A program made the translations under genes and the position numbers. The notes under the pieces are model-generated. The model worked only from the letters and a program-made list of their open reading frames with translations, ran no database searches and was not told where the DNA came from. Shown piece after piece: positions 27,105 to 31,295 of a stretch of 32,000 bases of DNA; the stretch's first letter is position 1, and every line of letters begins with the position of its first letter. Source of the stretch: Candidatus Saccharimonadota bacterium (GTDB taxonomy: Bacteria > Patescibacteriota > Gracilibacteria > UBA1369 > 2-02-FULL-48-14); contig JBAZVE010000001.1 in NCBI GenBank assembly GCA_041661045.1, forward strand, positions 150,001 to 182,000. Direction: 5' to 3'.

Positions 27105-27980
27105 TTAAATTTTATTTGTCAAGCTTTTTAGCCCTACCGCCTCCGTCCTTTTCTGTTGCACTTTCACATTGATCGAATGCGCCAACACATGATGTTCTTT
27201 GCAAAGTGGTGCGAGATAGTGCGGATCGTGGCGGTGGCTCAGGGCAAAGGTTTGCGTGTGGTGGAGTTGTTCCGCTGGTTTTTGGCAGCTGGGGATGGCG
27301 CATTTACTACCGTGTTCTTTTTGTAAAACTTTCTTGGTGCGGGCGGGCACATGTCGGGACTGTTTTTCAGGTAAGTTTGCCACAATAGCCGCCTTTTCTT
27401 CTTCAATCTCTTGCTCCCTTTTGTCCAGTAGTTCCGTAAGGATTTCATTTAAGTTGAGACCTTTTTCTTGCAACTCCAAAAGGCGTGTGGTGACTTTTTC
27501 GTCCAAATTCAAGTGCGCGCGCACAGATTTTACTTCAATTTGTGGCTTAAGAAAGCCATTTAATTTTTGAAATTGCTCATCTCGCACCAAAGTCTCCACG
27601 GCTGCTTGGGGTAAAATCTTCACCGCCTCCGCCAGGTCTTCCTGGTTTTCCACAGTCGCAATGGAGGCCACCCGGGCCAGTTTATTCACGCTCACCTCGC
27701 CTGTTTCCAAAAGATTTTTCAGGGTGGGCACCCCTTCAAACTTTCTCTCTAACTGTAAAACTCTCCTCACTTGCTCTTCGCTGAGCCCTGCCAACTTAAA
27801 AGAAAATTCAAAAACGCTGGAGAAGCCCTTTTTCTCATACAACCGCCGTCTTTGCACTTCCGGCAGCAATCCCATAAATTTCCTTCGCCAAAGGAGGGCG
27901 TTTTTTCCGTAGAAGCGGGCCTTTTCATACAGTTCTTTGTCGGTCATAGTGAGAGGGTTATTGAATCTAAATCCTACCAC
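27105..27980 (-). CDS. HNH endonuclease-domain protein (DUF222-like N-terminal region), 291 aa
   Basis: C-terminal HNH/Cys motif: CAIPSCQKPAEQLHHTQTFALSHRHDPHYLAPLCKEHHVLAHS. The start is either GTG 27980 or ATG 27947. Confidence 0.8.
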   Translation of the reverse strand: MVGFRFNNPLTMTDKELYEKARFYGKNALLWRRKFMGLLPEVQRRRLYEKKGFSSVFEFSFKLAGLSEEQVRRVLQLERKFEGVPTLKNLLETGEVSVNKLARVASIATVENQEDLAEAVKILPQAAVETLVRDEQFQKLNGFLKPQIEVKSVRAHLNLDEKVTTRLLELQEKGLNLNEILTELLDKREQEIEEEKAAIVANLPEKQSRHVPARTKKVLQKEHGSKCAIPSCQKPAEQLHHTQTFALSHRHDPHYLAPLCKEHHVLAHSINVKVQQKRTEAVGLKSLTNKI

Positions 27981-28093: not shown

Positions 28094-28122
28094 TTTACAT
28101 AGCGGCGGAGCGGGGGGAAGAT
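28094..28122 (+). promoter_or_regulatory. promoter for the aminotransferase gene (leaderless geometry)
   Basis: TTTACA (28094-28099), N17, GAAGAT (28117-28122), N6 (ggtttt), ATG at 28129. Confidence 0.4.
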
Positions 28123-28128
28123 GGTTTT

Positions 28129-29286
28129 ATGTTGGCTTCTCGTACCCACATTGCCGCTTCTGCCACGGCCATGGTCCATGGCCTGGTTCAAGATCTCAAA
28201 AGACAAGGGCATACGGTTTATAACCTCAGCATTGGCGAACCGAATTTGCCCAATGCACCCGAGATCCAAAATGGGGCGCTGGAGGCGATTGAACGGAATC
28301 AAAATGCTTACCCTCCCAGTCCGGGTTTTGAGGAAGTGCGGGAAACGGCGGCGGCTTGGGTGAATCGGACTTGCGGGACTCGCTTTGCGGCTTCCAATAC
28401 TTTGGTGACTGCCGGAGGAAAATTTGGGATTTTTTTGAGTTTACAAGCACTGGTGGAGGCAGGCGATGAAGTGGTTCTTGTTGCGCCTCACTGGGTCTCC
28501 TACCCTTCCATGATTCAGCTCTTTGATGGAAAGGCTCGGGTGATTCAATCTCACATGGAAAAGGGCTGGAAAATTTCCCCGGAGGAACTAGCGGCGGCCT
28601 GTGGCCCCACGACCAAAGTGGTGATTCTGAACAATGCGTGCAATCCCACCGGTTCCCTCTACACTCGTGAAGAGTTGGCGGCCTTGCTCGCGGTCGTCCC
28701 ACCGCACTGTTGGATACTCGCGGATGAGGTCTACAGCGGACTCTGCTATGACGGCCGCCCTTATGCCTCTTGCGGCCAATTTGAAGAATATGCGGATCGG
28801 TCGATTGTGATTCAAAGTTGCTCCAAAAACTTTGGCATGACGGGTTGGCGACTCGGTTTTGTGTTTGCACCCGCCTCCTTTATAGAGGTGCTCATCAAGT
28901 TGCAGGGGCAAAGCATCACTTCCGCCTCCGGGCTCAGCCAATGGGCGGCCTTAGCGGCGTTGCAAAATGCGGAGCACATTCAACGGAGCGTGCGGGAAGC
29001 CTTGGAAGAACGGCGAAATATTTTTATTGAAGGCTTGAGTGCGCGGTTTTCGCCCTTTCCCAAGCCCGCGGCCACCTTGTATTGTTTCCTCCCCCTCTCC
29101 TACTTTGGCGTTTCACATCAGGATGATATTCGTTTTTGCAAGGAGCTGCTGGAACAAGCGCACATCGCCCTGGTTCCGGGAACGGCTTTTGGCAGTCCGG
29201 GTTTTGTGCGCTGTGCCTTTGGAGAAACGCCGGAACACCTGGTGGCGTGTTTAGACAAACTTCAGGAATATTTTAAAAAATCTTGA
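28129..29286 (+). CDS. class I/II PLP-dependent aminotransferase (aspartate/aromatic type), 385 aa
   Basis: SIGEPNLP N-terminal motif and the PLP-lysine motif SCSKNFGMTGWRLGF. Confidence 0.9.
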   Translation: MLASRTHIAASATAMVHGLVQDLKRQGHTVYNLSIGEPNLPNAPEIQNGALEAIERNQNAYPPSPGFEEVRETAAAWVNRTCGTRFAASNTLVTAGGKFGIFLSLQALVEAGDEVVLVAPHWVSYPSMIQLFDGKARVIQSHMEKGWKISPEELAAACGPTTKVVILNNACNPTGSLYTREELAALLAVVPPHCWILADEVYSGLCYDGRPYASCGQFEEYADRSIVIQSCSKNFGMTGWRLGFVFAPASFIEVLIKLQGQSITSASGLSQWAALAALQNAEHIQRSVREALEERRNIFIEGLSARFSPFPKPAATLYCFLPLSYFGVSHQDDIRFCKELLEQAHIALVPGTAFGSPGFVRCAFGETPEHLVACLDKLQEYFKKS

Positions 29287-29312
29287 CGAAGGCCCTGTCC
29301 AGCGGATACAAT
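29283..29312 (+). promoter_or_regulatory. promoter for the Phe-rich leader ORF
   Basis: TTGACG (29283-29288, overlapping the aminotransferase stop), N18, TACAAT (29307-29312), then 9 nt to the ATG at 29322. Confidence 0.45.
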
Positions 29313-29321
29313 CGGGGCACT

Positions 29322-29396
29322 ATGGTTCACAATTTCTTTTTTAGCAGCTTCTTTTATTTCTTCGCTCCCCAGCGAGGCTGCTACCGTGTGAACTAA
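29322..29396 (+). CDS. candidate leader peptide, 24 aa: MVHNFFFSSFFYFFAPQRGCYRVN
   Basis: Not in the ORF track because it is under 60 aa. It has 7 Phe and 2 Tyr within codons 5-14. It is embedded in mutually exclusive hairpins upstream of an intrinsic terminator. Confidence 0.4.
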   Translation: MVHNFFFSSFFYFFAPQRGCYRVN

Positions 29397-29419
29397 GACC
29401 CCTTTATTTCACCCCAAAG

Positions 29420-29452
29420 CCCTCGCTCCAAAAGCGGGGGATTTTTATTTTT
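29420..29452 (+). terminator. intrinsic terminator (attenuator 3:4 hairpin)
   Basis: CCCTCGCT (29420-29427) pairs with AGCGGGGG (29433-29440): 8 bp including one G:U, 5-nt loop, followed by ATTTTTATTTTT. Confidence 0.7.
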
Positions 29453-29465
29453 AACCTCATGATTT

Positions 29466-29651
29466 ATGTCAGATCACCCATCAGCAGTTCCAGAAGAGAC
29501 TCCTGAAATCCCCGTTGCACCCGGTGTCCCACGCCAACCTGATCCTGTTGAACAACGGGTCGATGAGATTACTCAGATTTGTGCGGCTGTCCGTGGCAGC
29601 ATGGCCCCCACTATTAACCCTGAAAATTGGACGCGAGCTTACCAGTTCTAA
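29466..29651 (+). CDS. possible small hypothetical protein, 61 aa
   Basis: ORF starts 14 nt after the terminator U-tract, and a second terminator follows. An alternative-frame ORF (29515..29772) competes, but it runs through that terminator. No homology recognised. Confidence 0.35.
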   Translation: MSDHPSAVPEETPEIPVAPGVPRQPDPVEQRVDEITQICAAVRGSMAPTINPENWTRAYQF

Positions 29652-29744
29652 CCCCCGTCTTTATGCACCTCAATCATTTTTATTATTTTTATTTCACCGG
29701 CTCTCGGGGCTGCTTTTGACTCGTGCTTTAAAACGACTCACTCA

Positions 29745-29768
29745 GCCTCGAGCAATCGGGGCTTTTTT
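29745..29768 (+). terminator. intrinsic terminator
   Basis: GCCTCGA-GCAA-TCGGGGC: 7 bp including one G:U, with a GNRA loop, followed by TTTTTT. Confidence 0.65.
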
Positions 29769-29788
29769 ATAACTTAAAACCATACCCT

Positions 29789-30067
29789 ATGAATAGGCCA
29801 ACACCCCTTACTACTGACGCAGAACTTATCAGCCAAATAAATGAAGCGAGAAACGCCGGCCACGGGATAAGCACCCTTGCGGATGAAGCGCGGCAAATGG
29901 AACTCCATCAAGTTTCCGATGATTTGGCTCTTTTGCGAGACACCGGGGAAGTATCCCCTCTCCTTACAAGGCTTTTGAAAGATGGAGTCGCCGTGGATTT
30001 GTACGGTCCTCCTCGACAACTGGTTGACATCATCACTGATCTTCGGCTCCAGTTGTCCCGGGCTTAA
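29789..30067 (+). CDS. possible small hypothetical protein, 92 aa
   Basis: ORF lying between the terminator at 29745-29768 and the rplJ promoter. Predicted helical. No homology recognised. Confidence 0.4.
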   Translation: MNRPTPLTTDAELISQINEARNAGHGISTLADEARQMELHQVSDDLALLRDTGEVSPLLTRLLKDGVAVDLYGPPRQLVDIITDLRLQLSRA

Positions 30068-30092
30068 GATTTTGAGTTAACCCAAAAACTGC

Positions 30093-30121
30093 TTTACAAA
30101 AAGGCTTTTACCTTATAGAAT
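30093..30121 (+). promoter_or_regulatory. promoter for rplJ-rplL
   Basis: TTTACA (30093-30098), N17, TAGAAT (30116-30121). Confidence 0.5.
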
Positions 30122-30348
30122 CCTGCTGCGTTCGAAGACCGTAGGCAATTGGAACAGGAGCAGATTGGGCTCCGCCCAATAGAAGTCCTGCGCAGATCAG
30201 CAGGTTTCTCCTTTGGGAGAGGCTCACTCTGAATCTTAAGGAGCCCACCGGGCTCGGCTCAACGCAAGTTGAGATATTTGGTTTAAAACCAAGTGGTCGA
30301 CCTCAACCGTCCAATCAGGCCTTCGGGCCCAACTAATTCTTTGTCACT
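30122..30348 (+). promoter_or_regulatory. long structured 5' leader of rplJ (probable L10-leader-type autoregulatory element)
   Basis: About 225 nt with many local hairpins: ATTGGGC-TCC-GCCCAAT (30164-30180), TCTCC-TTTG-GGAGA (30207-30220), GAGCCC-ACC-GGGCTC (30241-30255), CTCAAC-GCAA-GTTGAG (30258-30273), TTGGTT-TAA-AACCAA (30278-30292) and GGCC-TTCG-GGCC (30318-30329). There is also a long-range pairing, CCTGCTG (30122-30128) with CAGCAGG (30198-30204). Confidence 0.5.
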
Positions 30349-30873
30349 ATGCCAATCACCAGACCTCAAAAAGAAGCTTATCTAGAAGAGCTTCGAGACA
30401 AGTTCGGACGAGCAAAATCAGTGGCATTCGGCCAATACAGCGGAATGACCATGGCTCAACTCTCCAAAATGCGTACAGAAATGCGCGCTGCGGGTGTTGA
30501 ATTTAAGGTTGCAAAACGAACCTTATTCAAAATTGCTGCTAAAGAACAAGGTTTCGAACTCCCAGATGAGCTTATGATGGGAACTGTAGGTGCCGCTTTC
30601 TCTTATGAGGATGGCATCGCAGGTCCCCGCATCATCAAGAAAATGGGTAAAGAGGTGGAAGCCCTCAAACTCATGGGTGGAATTATGGAAGGACAAGTCC
30701 TTTCGGTTGCCCAAATGAAGGAAATCGCCGATCTTCCAAGCAAGCAAGAACTTCTTGCAAAAGTGGTGGGTCTCATGCGAGCTCCTTTGCAAAACTTCTA
30801 CGGAGCTATTCAGTCTCCACTTTCTTCTTTCGCACGAGCCCTTCAAGGCTACGCAGAGAAGAAGCCCGCTTAA
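30349..30873 (+). CDS. rplJ: 50S ribosomal protein L10, 174 aa
   Basis: Family-typical sequence (KEAYLEELRDKFGRAKSVAFGQYSGMTMAQLSKMRTEMRAAGVEFKVAKRTL), directly upstream of rplL. Confidence 0.95.
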   Translation: MPITRPQKEAYLEELRDKFGRAKSVAFGQYSGMTMAQLSKMRTEMRAAGVEFKVAKRTLFKIAAKEQGFELPDELMMGTVGAAFSYEDGIAGPRIIKKMGKEVEALKLMGGIMEGQVLSVAQMKEIADLPSKQELLAKVVGLMRAPLQNFYGAIQSPLSSFARALQGYAEKKPA

Positions 30874-30893: not shown

Positions 30894-31295
30894 ATGTCAG
30901 ACGAAACCAAAGTAGAGCTTTCCAAAGAGGGAAAGACCCTCATCGAGGCTCTCGAAAAACTCAATGTTGTTGAGCTCAACAATGTTGTTAAATTCATGGA
31001 ACAAGAGTACGGAATTTCCGCTGCTCCTGTTGCCGTAGCCGCTGCCGGAGGAGCAGCTGCAGCTGGCGCTCCTGCCGCTGAAGAAAAATCTTCCTTCAAT
31101 GTTAAACTTGTGGATTCCGGTGCTCAAAAGATCGGAGTGATCAAGGTTGTTCGTGAACTCACCGGACTTGGTCTCAAAGAGGCTAAGGATGTTGTGGACG
31201 CAAACGGAATGGTTATGGAAAATGCTCCTACCGATAAAGCCAACGAAGCTAAAAAGGCTTTGGAAGCTGCCGGAGCTAAGGTTGAATTGCAATAA
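30894..31295 (+). CDS. rplL: 50S ribosomal protein L7/L12, 133 aa
   Basis: N-terminal dimerisation helix, Ala-rich hinge, and C-terminal [24 protein letters not shown]. Confidence 0.95.

Follow-up and report, generated by a model that had tools for sequence, protein, structure and literature searches.

The window analysed here is a stretch of 32,000 nucleotides (nt) of the Candidatus Saccharimonadota bacterium contig JBAZVE010000001.1. Near its end it contains a class I/II aminotransferase gene, a short Phe-rich leader open reading frame (ORF) with promoter and terminator (element 1, 29283-29452), a small gene (ORF61), a second leader ORF with terminator (element 2), a second small gene (ORF92) and the ribosomal protein genes rplJ and rplL, all on the forward strand (Table 1). 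Taken together, sequence, conservation in relatives and modelled folding indicate that element 1 is in all likelihood a ribosome-mediated transcription attenuator, sensing charged tRNA-Phe and to a lesser degree tRNA-Tyr.

The aminotransferase stop codon overlaps the -35 box of element 1, and no terminator is found between that gene and the leader. The -10 box is located 9 nt before the ATG, implying a 5' untranslated region (UTR) of about 0-3 nt. Six promoter-like matches were found in 5 kb against 4.1 expected, and the match of the leader 1 promoter alone is not significant. An earlier inspection of the letters without database searches (the sequence-only reading) had described the promoter, the 24-codon ORF with its stop codon, and the terminator stem followed by the U tract, and all of these are present as described. 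So are the two complementarities on which its proposal was built, one of 9 bp (29343-29351 with 29374-82) and one of 7 bp (29371-77 with 29421-27).

Table 1. Features of the window around elements 1 and 2, followed by the leader peptides of the homologous loci; (stop) denotes a stop codon after the peptide.
Feature	Position or lineage	Strand	Basis and remarks
Class I/II aminotransferase gene	28129-29286	+	ORF listing; PF00155; context, not part of the switch
Leader 1 promoter	29283-29312	+	-35 TTGACG 29283-88, 18-nt spacer, -10 TACAAT 29307-12 (consensus scan)
Leader ORF 1 (pheL-like), MVHNFFFSSFFYFFAPQRGCYRVN (stop)	29322-29396	+	ORF listing; 24 codons, ATG 29322, stop 29394-29396
Regulatory codon run, codons 5-14	29334-29363	+	7 Phe, 1 Tyr, 2 Ser
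1:2 structure (protector, likely pause hairpin), P1/P2/P3	29323-29395	+	RNAfold
Segment 2, AGCGAGGCUGCU	29371-29382	+	pairs backward (P3/P2) or forward with 29418-29427 (antiterminator)
Segment 3, AGCCCUCGCU (29418-27), and segment 4, AGCGGGGG (29433-40)	29418-29440	+	terminator hairpin proper 29420-29440
Terminator 1 U tract, AUUUUUAUUUUU	29441-29452	+	sequence, terminator scan
ORF61, acidic, Pro-rich orphan	29466-29651	+	ORF listing; first gene after attenuator 1
Leader ORF 2, MHLNHFYYFYFTGSRGCF (stop)	29663-29719	+	ORF and homologues; Tyr/Phe run in codons 6-11
Element 2 antiterminator, 29702-12 UCUCGGGGCUG with 29743-52 CAGCCUCGAG	29702-29752	+	minimum-energy structure, five lineages
Terminator 2 (stem 29744-63) and U tract	29744-29769	+	terminator scan, folding
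ORF92, second small gene	29789-30067	+	ORF listing; predicted all-helical
rplJ promoter (TTTACA, 17 nt, TAGAAT) and structured leader of about 225 nt	30093-30348	+	scan; conserved
rplJ	30349-30873	+	ORF listing
rplL	30894-31295	+	ORF listing
Leader 1 peptide MVHNFFFSSFFYFFAPQRGC...	window, L002, L035, L048		
Leader 1 peptide MVHNFFFSSFYFF...	L040		
Leader 1 peptide MVHKNFFSSFFYFF...	L042		
Leader 1 peptide MVHNNFFSSSFYFF...	L053		
Leader 1 peptide MVHSYFFSSFFFFF...	L052		
Leader 1 peptide MTHTNFFYSSFYFF...	L047		
Leader 1 peptide MSHKFFFSSYFFFF...	L051		
Leader 1 peptide MNHTFFFSSFFSF...	L054		
Leader 2 peptide MDQKFFYYCFYFTGSRGSF (stop)	L002		
Leader 2 peptide MNPKFFNYFYFTSSRGCY (stop)	L035		
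Leader 2 peptide MKKTFFYYYFYFTGSRGCF (stop)	L040		
Leader 2 peptide MPKIFLYYYFYFTGSRGCF (stop)	L053		
Leader 2 peptide MHIILSFFHFFHFTGSRGCF (stop)	L047		
Leader 2 homologue	L054		more diverged copy

The minimum-energy fold of element 1 consists of three nested helices, with the terminator as a separate hairpin on their 3' side. P1 (29323-31 with 29387-95) buries both the AUG and the stop codon, P2 pairs 29342-49 with 29376-83, and P3, the apical hairpin UCGCU-CCCC-AGCGA with its CCCC loop, pairs 29362-66 with 29371-75 and can be extended to 29360-66 with 29371-77. The terminator stem (29420-29427 with 29433-29440) is 8 bp long and G+C-rich, with one G-U pair. The forward pairing of segment 2, here called 2:3, joins 29371-82 to 29418-27 by 7 bp, a 2-nt bulge and 3 bp. 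The region 29315-29455 folds with -43.5 kcal/mol in RNAfold (z = -4.4), and none of 200 shuffled sequences folds as well. Without 29315-63 the minimum-energy fold pairs AGCGAGG with CCUCGCU, that is, the 2:3 pairing.

Searches of the RNA family database gave no match that would identify the element. No Rfam family matched the whole window at the gathering score, and at E <= 10 the region 29200-30400 and the leader of the L051 locus described below gave chance-level matches only, with no match to Phe_leader (RF01859). Known riboswitch or T-box families were likewise not matched by Rfam, either in the whole window or in 29200-30400 at E <= 10, and an ARAGORN scan of the window for tRNA and tmRNA found nothing. 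The possibility that element 1 is a repeat or mobile element was rejected by a self-similarity search within the window.

Related loci were gathered via the aminotransferase, ribosomal protein L10 and a degenerate DNA pattern scanned over metagenomes. Element 1 is found in 11 lineages, namely the window and those designated L002, L035, L040, L042, L047, L048, L051, L052, L053 and L054. As read off the sequences, all 11 have a -35 box (TTGACN or TTTACN), a spacer of 17-18 nt and a -10 box (TAnnnT) placed 6-11 nt before the ATG, and the pair of boxes is kept in place although the spacer sequence diverges. The transcripts of all lineages would thus be practically leaderless. The leader ORF has 20-25 codons, with a frame that is open through 5-7 Phe and 0-2 Tyr codons in every lineage. 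The fold with P1, P2 and P3 is common to all lineages, and an intrinsic terminator, 23-30 nt after the stop codon, is always present between the leader ORF and the first downstream gene. The core of segment 2, GCGAGGCUGCU, is invariant (11/11). The 5' arm of the terminator, (A/G)GCCUCGC(U/A), is complementary to segment 2 over 7-10 bp, with CCUCGC kept throughout, and in most lineages two bases 5' of the terminator stem complement segment 2 while having no partner in segment 4.

The terminator regions were compared by anchor-based extraction, in which the register of P1 is off by one base. The duplex of segment 2 and terminator arm has energies of -12.8 to -18.4 kcal/mol, against -8.5 to -12.6 for the terminator hairpins, in the nine lineages with valid extraction; the L052 energies are invalid, the antiterminated fold having been taken as the last hairpin. 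The DNA identity to the window is 83-99% for the core of element 1, 74-84% for the rplJ coding sequence and about 50-64% for the rplJ leader of the same genomes. The flanking proteins are 64-88% identical across lineages.

A ribosome on the leader was modelled as a forced-unpaired stretch from -12 to +12 or +15 around the first P-site base, and the mean pair probability of the terminator stem in the partition function was used as readout, which is equilibrium modelling of a kinetic process. In eight lineages the terminator probability without a ribosome is 0.8-1.0, and in L054 it is 0.62. Placing the A site on codons 5/6-13 lowers it to about 0.00-0.2 in most lineages, and from codon 14 on it is back at 0.97-1.0. 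The window has values of 0.02-0.03 at codons 6-8, 0.19 at Ser9 and 0.01 at Tyr12. When the sequence 5' of the window's terminator was shuffled, none of 200 versions gave a high-low-high profile. The folding of 29315-29455, which the sequence-only reading had suggested as a check, yields three helices and a terminator in the free RNA, and masking of the Phe run leads to loss of the predicted terminator.

The genomic context of the L051 homologue connects the element to aromatic amino acids. This leader (TTGACA, 18 nt, TATAGT, ATG) encodes MSHKFFFSSYFFFFATKRGC followed by a stop codon, forms the same helices, and has a terminator that ends 10 nt before the aroA ATG. The nine-gene operon that follows is aroA-aroK-aroQ-aroE-DAHPS-DHQS-PDT-PDH/CM-aminotransferase (shikimate/Phe/Tyr), and the L10 protein of this lineage is 86% identical to that of the window. 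In L051 the neighbours of the element are aroA and, on the other side, a divergent TENA-like gene. This TENA-like gene is also next to the element in L040 and L052, and next to the aminotransferase-plus-element pair in L035 and L002; the L051 arrangement is therefore syntenic with these loci and not an assembly artefact. By its position before this operon, element 1 is very probably an aromatic amino-acid attenuator. The sequence-only reading had suggested a Phe-codon attenuator with mutually exclusive 1:2, 2:3 and 3:4 pairings, and the L051 operon, the 11-lineage conservation, the masking profiles and the shuffles all support this.

An independent Phe-rich leader is found in the more distant Peregrinibacterium L050 (3260-3421), encoding MLITSFFNGFFFFTLT before a stop codon, with the promoter TTGACT...TATATT and a weak U-tract hairpin. 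The genes that follow it are aroA/K/E-DAHPS-DHQS-chorismate synthase-PheA-aminotransferase-MiaA-MazG-RecJ, and a TrpR-like gene and trpE/G/D-C-F are located divergently upstream. The MiaA-MazG-RecJ...CCA-enzyme block of L050 is collinear with the window. On these comparisons the ancestral state at the locus would be an aro operon controlled by a Phe leader, later lost in the window's clade. Element 1 would then derive from the attenuator of an aromatic amino-acid operon that is still present in one sister lineage; the window genome no longer has the operon at this site, and clade-specific small proteins would now be under control of the switch.

The window aminotransferase has its best relatives in Candidatus Peribacteria/Peregrinibacteria metagenome-assembled genomes (MAGs), the group within the candidate phyla radiation to which the window's genome is assigned, and is 64-68% identical to the L002 and L035 orthologues and 44% identical to the aminotransferase of the L051 aro operon. 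The upstream gene is divergent in L040, L042 and L052 and a transposase in L054; in L053 the element is at the start of the fetched contig, and in L048 only an aminotransferase remnant is found upstream. Remnants of the aminotransferase 3' end (...gagttcactcccgggagtga) were seen by eye just upstream of the leader promoter in L048 (4300-4365) and L040 (3890-3935), so in these lineages the gene appears to have been deleted and the attenuator kept. The transposase gene of L054 (8471-8998, complete genome CP064962.1) is of the rve family and stands immediately upstream of the leader promoter, which shows that rearrangement takes place at this flank. Within the window, element 1 probably also terminates the aminotransferase transcript, because no other terminator does so. 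As a sole explanation, the aminotransferase 3' UTR or terminator, which the sequence-only reading had listed as an alternative, is excluded by the copies that have no co-directional gene upstream (L040, L042, L052, L053 and L054).

Two further observations concern this flank. A conserved motif, GTATCTTTACATAGAGC(N)TTTTTTTG(R)GCAAGAC, adjoins the start of the divergent TENA-like gene, upstream of the leader or of the aminotransferase (L051 430-470, L040 3870-3905, L048 4255-4295, and window 28100-28115 in the shortened form CTTTACATAG), and may be a shared promoter or operator. The slot of the relatives' TENA/haem-oxygenase-like gene is occupied in the window by a 291-amino-acid (aa) ORF on the reverse strand (27105-27980), with a C-terminal CxxC...HH...H motif that by eye recalls HNH endonucleases and with sub-threshold matches only in Pfam; it may be an inserted selfish gene.

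The leader peptide residues after the aromatic run differ between lineages (YRVN, SRVN, SSVN or SRVTA). The ORFs of L048 and L051 have 20 codons and stop after ...RGC, and the CGUGUGAAC strand is retained even 3' of this stop codon, because it forms P1. Every indel that precedes the Phe run or falls within it has a length divisible by three (-TTC in L040 and L047, +ACG in L047). The sole 1-nt indel, a deletion in the P3 loop of L054, is located after the aromatic run and changes ...FFAPQRGC to ...FAPSEAAQV followed by a stop codon, with all helices kept, which argues against a functional peptide. Differences between close relatives are mostly synonymous (TTT/TTC, AGC/AGT, CAC/CAT, TAC/TAT). 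Changes of F to Y, N or S show that the U tract of the run is not kept as a sequence; what persists is the run of aromatic codons. Conservation thus extends to the AUG, an open frame through the aromatic codons, a suitably placed stop codon and the RNA, which matches the prediction for a leader peptide.

Downstream of ORF61, the second terminator mentioned by the sequence-only reading is present at 29744-63. It belongs to a second candidate leader-peptide attenuator (29663-29769) that had been overlooked. The antiterminator of element 2 encloses a conserved hairpin (29717-40), its 5' strand is the 3' part of leader ORF 2, and it is the minimum-energy structure in 5/5 lineages tested. The modelled terminator probability is about 0 without a ribosome or with a ribosome in the Phe/Tyr run, and 0.96-0.98 once the ribosome is past about codon 12. 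Homologues of element 2 were found in six other lineages (L002, L035, L040, L047, L053 and L054). The nhmmer profile of element 1 matches element 2 weakly (E = 0.001-0.02), and both elements use the pairing CGRGGCUG / CAGCCUCG; the two therefore look like paralogues. Element 2 has no evident promoter of its own and is probably reached only by read-through of element 1.

The proposed mechanism has the following steps. Transcription would start at or within about 3 nt of the AUG, and a ribosome would have to load on the leaderless RNA ahead of P1 synthesis. If no ribosome is present, or if one has moved past the Phe run, AGCGAGGCUGCU would be held in P2/P3 or covered, the CCCUCGCU/AGCGGGGG terminator would form, and transcription would end at about 29452. 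A ribosome stalled on the Phe/Tyr codons 5-13 would strip the 5' strands from P1-P3, so that segment 2 would be free to pair with the terminator's 5' arm, and RNA polymerase would read into ORF61. The read-through transcript would then meet attenuator 2, where the antiterminator is the predicted default; terminator 2 would form only if the ribosome passes the Tyr/Phe run, and otherwise transcription would continue into ORF92. Sequence features, their conservation, the gene neighbourhoods and the thermodynamic switching are results of the analysis, from which leader translation, its coupling to transcription, a response to Phe and the ancestral arrangement are inferred.

Several points weigh against attenuation by this route. 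Covariation is almost absent, because the helices are nearly invariant, and the structure is backed by conservation and energy, not by compensatory changes; only one helix change affects both strands, from U-A to A-U at the terminator stem's top (L047 and L054). Of the signs of conservation that the sequence-only reading had proposed to look for, those of the ORF and the Phe run were found, as was that of the alternative pairing, and compensatory changes are nearly lacking. Variable columns over all lineages number 6, 8 and 8 at codon positions 1, 2 and 3, with no third-position excess. No Shine-Dalgarno sequence is found before the leader 1 ATG, and translation would need leaderless initiation. 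The masking profile of the window is less clean than those of its relatives, with terminator probabilities of 0.94 at Phe11 and 0.5 at Phe10 and Phe13. With a ribosome at the stop codon no terminator is predicted in the 24-codon variants L035, L040 and L042; the antiterminator helix would there have to close around the ribosome, an arrangement that can be argued to be sterically implausible. For L052 the antiterminated fold is the minimum-energy fold even without a ribosome. Finally, the genes controlled in the window have no link to Phe. A location upstream of genes for Phe biosynthesis, transport or charging is found in L051, and in the window ORF61 and ORF92 follow instead.

Attenuation at element 1 is the reading best suited to these data as a whole. 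The wider proposal is put forward tentatively: that the tandem Phe and Tyr/Phe attenuators are strongly selected and have been rewired as a sensor of charged-tRNA starvation, with fast-evolving, clade-specific small proteins as outputs and perhaps also an RNA of about 130 nt that acts in trans. The trans role alone could also be what has preserved the element. The terminated transcript of about 130 nt (29322-29452) would then act as a trans base-pairing small RNA (sRNA) and/or through a trans-acting peptide, and this role, not control of ORF61, would explain survival after loss of the aro genes. Such a dual function, which is compatible with cis attenuation, is considered unlikely. It would account for a core that is more conserved than a ribosomal protein gene, beyond the usual need of known attenuators, and for retention in 10 lineages with no aro gene following and with downstream genes that are fast-evolving or swapped; a trans-acting attenuator RNA and leader peptide also have a precedent (PMC6614838, PMC7298713). 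However, the exposed regions are U-rich loops of low information, the bases that do not vary coincide exactly with those forming the cis alternative pairings, and the lack of conservation of the peptide C-terminus in L054, L048 and L051 weakens the case for a trans-acting peptide.

That element 1 is a structured non-coding sRNA, transcribed from its own promoter to its own terminator and with an incidental ORF in which a U-rich strand reads as Phe codons, has little probability, although this is harder to set aside on sequence alone. The AUG is at the 5' end and the frame open through the run in all 11 lineages, and indels before the end of the run are 3n only, none of which a purely non-coding RNA would explain. 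The aromatic codons persist through the F to Y, N or S changes. A terminator 10 nt from aroA fits an amino-acid attenuator and is not predicted for a free-standing sRNA, and no Rfam family is matched. In favour of such an sRNA are the beginning of the transcript at the first base of the closing stem P1, as in many sRNAs, the lack of a Shine-Dalgarno sequence and of an overall third-position bias, and the very high nucleotide identity. A pure non-coding RNA was the first hypothesis, resembling the signal recognition particle RNA by eye and suggested by the near-identity of the L002 copy; it was dropped in view of the missing Rfam match, the ORF and the aro-operon context.

It is highly improbable that element 1 is a relic, the attenuator of a lost aro operon that now serves only as aminotransferase terminator or constitutive terminator. 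The aro operon is absent at the site in 10/11 lineages, in the window, L002 and L035 no terminator other than that of the element follows the aminotransferase gene, and described Peribacter genomes encode few amino-acid biosynthesis genes (PMC4736985), all of which such a relic would fit. Decay would be expected, yet the start codon, the Phe run, the helices and the 2:3 complementarity are kept above the identity of rplJ, the element persists where the aminotransferase has been deleted (L040, L048, L052-L054), and a second, apparently paralogous attenuator is maintained. A functional small hydrophobic peptide on a highly structured mRNA, either a type I toxin or a membrane peptide as the sequence-only reading had also considered, is barely credible: the short aromatic-rich ORF and a start codon held in a long-range 5'-3' helix do recall type I toxin mRNAs, but the hydrophobic stretch has only about 10-11 residues, the C-terminus varies, is cut short (the 20-codon copies of L048 and L051) or is out of frame (L054) although the RNA is preserved, the consensus scan lists no antisense promoter or terminator at the locus, and the aro-operon context of L051 would be left unexplained.

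The genes after the two attenuators are small and poorly conserved. ORF61 has no Pfam match, and among 5.8 billion proteins only itself was found, so the odd context pointed out by the sequence-only reading, an orphan ORF with no Phe gene following, stands. ORF92 likewise has no Pfam match; a phmmer search among 1.8 billion representatives returned itself only, plus repeat-protein noise, and a single-sequence AF2 model is helical with low confidence (pLDDT 55). Pfam gave nothing significant for nine small ORFs. The same-slot ORFs of relatives encode 15-120 aa and can hardly be aligned across the clade. Those of L002 and L052 are 40% identical (E = 7e-16), and those of L042, L048 and L053 resemble one another by eye. 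On account of the clear homology of some pairs, the same-slot ORFs are taken to be real, fast-evolving genes. Further downstream, the rplJ leader contains blocks that are 88-95% identical in relatives and has no Rfam match, including L10_leader at E <= 10; it may be a lineage-specific L10 autoregulatory leader.

Most genes of this clade are without a Shine-Dalgarno sequence. In front of many of their start codons there is instead an AAACC(C/A)-like motif at about -8 to -14, of which ttaaaaccataccctATG and tttaaacccttaattATG are examples (window 29775-29788 and 29452-29465, L035 5712-5727, L042 4570-4584, L053 655-670); it may be an alternative initiation signal.

Aromatic-rich small ORFs were also seen next to aminotransferase homologues elsewhere. 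In L021 (5180-5310; also L020 5179-5250 and L026 5067-5135) a small Tyr-, Phe- and Trp-rich ORF (MKLSVSHTYFYFWAHALHSPDV, MKPSISFFRTYWFWN...) with a strong terminator is located directly after the aminotransferase homologue, and in L021 before an ORF of unknown function and tryptophanyl-tRNA synthetase. This looks like another family of aromatic leader-peptide attenuators. Small ORFs ending in ...FSYFYFYFGAKRQ, ...FFYSFYFGA or similar were found upstream of aminotransferase homologues in Chlamydiae and Verrucomicrobia MAGs (L016 1073-1201, L019 879-1010, L032 3501-3620, L013 918-1049) and may represent a further conserved aromatic-rich leader peptide.

For leader-peptide attenuation, translation must be closely coupled to transcription, and the mechanism has been described mainly in Proteobacteria and Actinobacteria. 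No paper was found that combines leader peptide, attenuation and Patescibacteria or the candidate phyla radiation (CPR). A conserved Peribacteria family of such elements would imply that translation and transcription are coupled on leaderless RNA in these reduced cells. The mechanism is already known; what is new in the putative attenuator of element 1 is the CPR lineage, the leaderless transcript, the tandem duplication and the detachment from aromatic biosynthesis. The family constitutes a natural experiment, since one lineage has the switch ahead of a complete aro operon and ten others have it ahead of orphan small genes, and it would illustrate how a metabolic feedback device can be kept and redirected after loss of the pathway. 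ORF61, ORF92 and their relatives become candidate starvation-response proteins, and annotators gain a concrete family of RNAs with upstream ORFs. If the rewiring is true, the sensor would serve an auxotrophic and probably host-dependent bacterium as a nutrient-sensing circuit and not as a biosynthesis feedback.

Tandem attenuators are known from other systems; the B. subtilis pyr operon has three, and tandem T-boxes also exist. The window resembles these in having two successive termination checkpoints in one unit, a Phe-type followed by a Tyr/Phe-type. It differs in that the devices are apparently paralogous leader-peptide attenuators, each with a small ORF of its own, and in that according to the model the first is off and the second on by default in the absence of translation.

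The ilvBNC operon of C. glutamicum has a leaderless leader-peptide attenuator, for which a three-hairpin model has been described and in which the first hairpin blocks initiation (PMC11857589). Element 1 would share with it translation from a leaderless transcript, a first hairpin that both blocks initiation and is an anti-antiterminator, and termination as the default, whereas the ilvBNC leader has branched-chain codons, belongs to Actinobacteria, is non-homologous and is followed by its cognate biosynthetic operon. In Sinorhizobium meliloti the terminated RNA of the trpL attenuator, rnTrpL, and the peptide peTrpL act in trans (PMC6614838, PMC7298713). This attenuator is ribosome-dependent too, and by analogy the terminated RNA of element 1 could have a role of its own, a reason for retention beyond cis control. 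The trans function is demonstrated in S. meliloti and hypothetical here, and trpL senses Trp and still precedes trpE(G).

The closest functional counterparts are the pheL-pheA (RF01859) and pheM-pheST leaders of E. coli. Phe leaders have been described for pheA, and reports of pheL come almost exclusively from gamma-proteobacteria, apart from a few candidates in Bacteroides and Desulfobacterium (PMC3082878). In described Peribacter genomes, where few genes for amino-acid biosynthesis are found, externally derived amino acids are thought to be needed (PMC4736985). Element 1 is not a member of Phe_leader by sequence, having no sequence or covariance-model similarity to RF01859 (no match at E <= 10). 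Unlike pheL it belongs to another phylum and is predicted to be leaderless and without a Shine-Dalgarno sequence, with the whole ORF including AUG and stop codon in one three-helix hairpin, and unlike both E. coli leaders the window element precedes orphan small ORFs and not pheA or pheST. It is nevertheless functionally alike in its predicted design, with a short leader ORF containing a Phe run (here MVHNFFFSSFFYFF...), a mutually exclusive protector or pause hairpin, antiterminator and intrinsic terminator, and a homologue in L051 that precedes Phe/Tyr genes.

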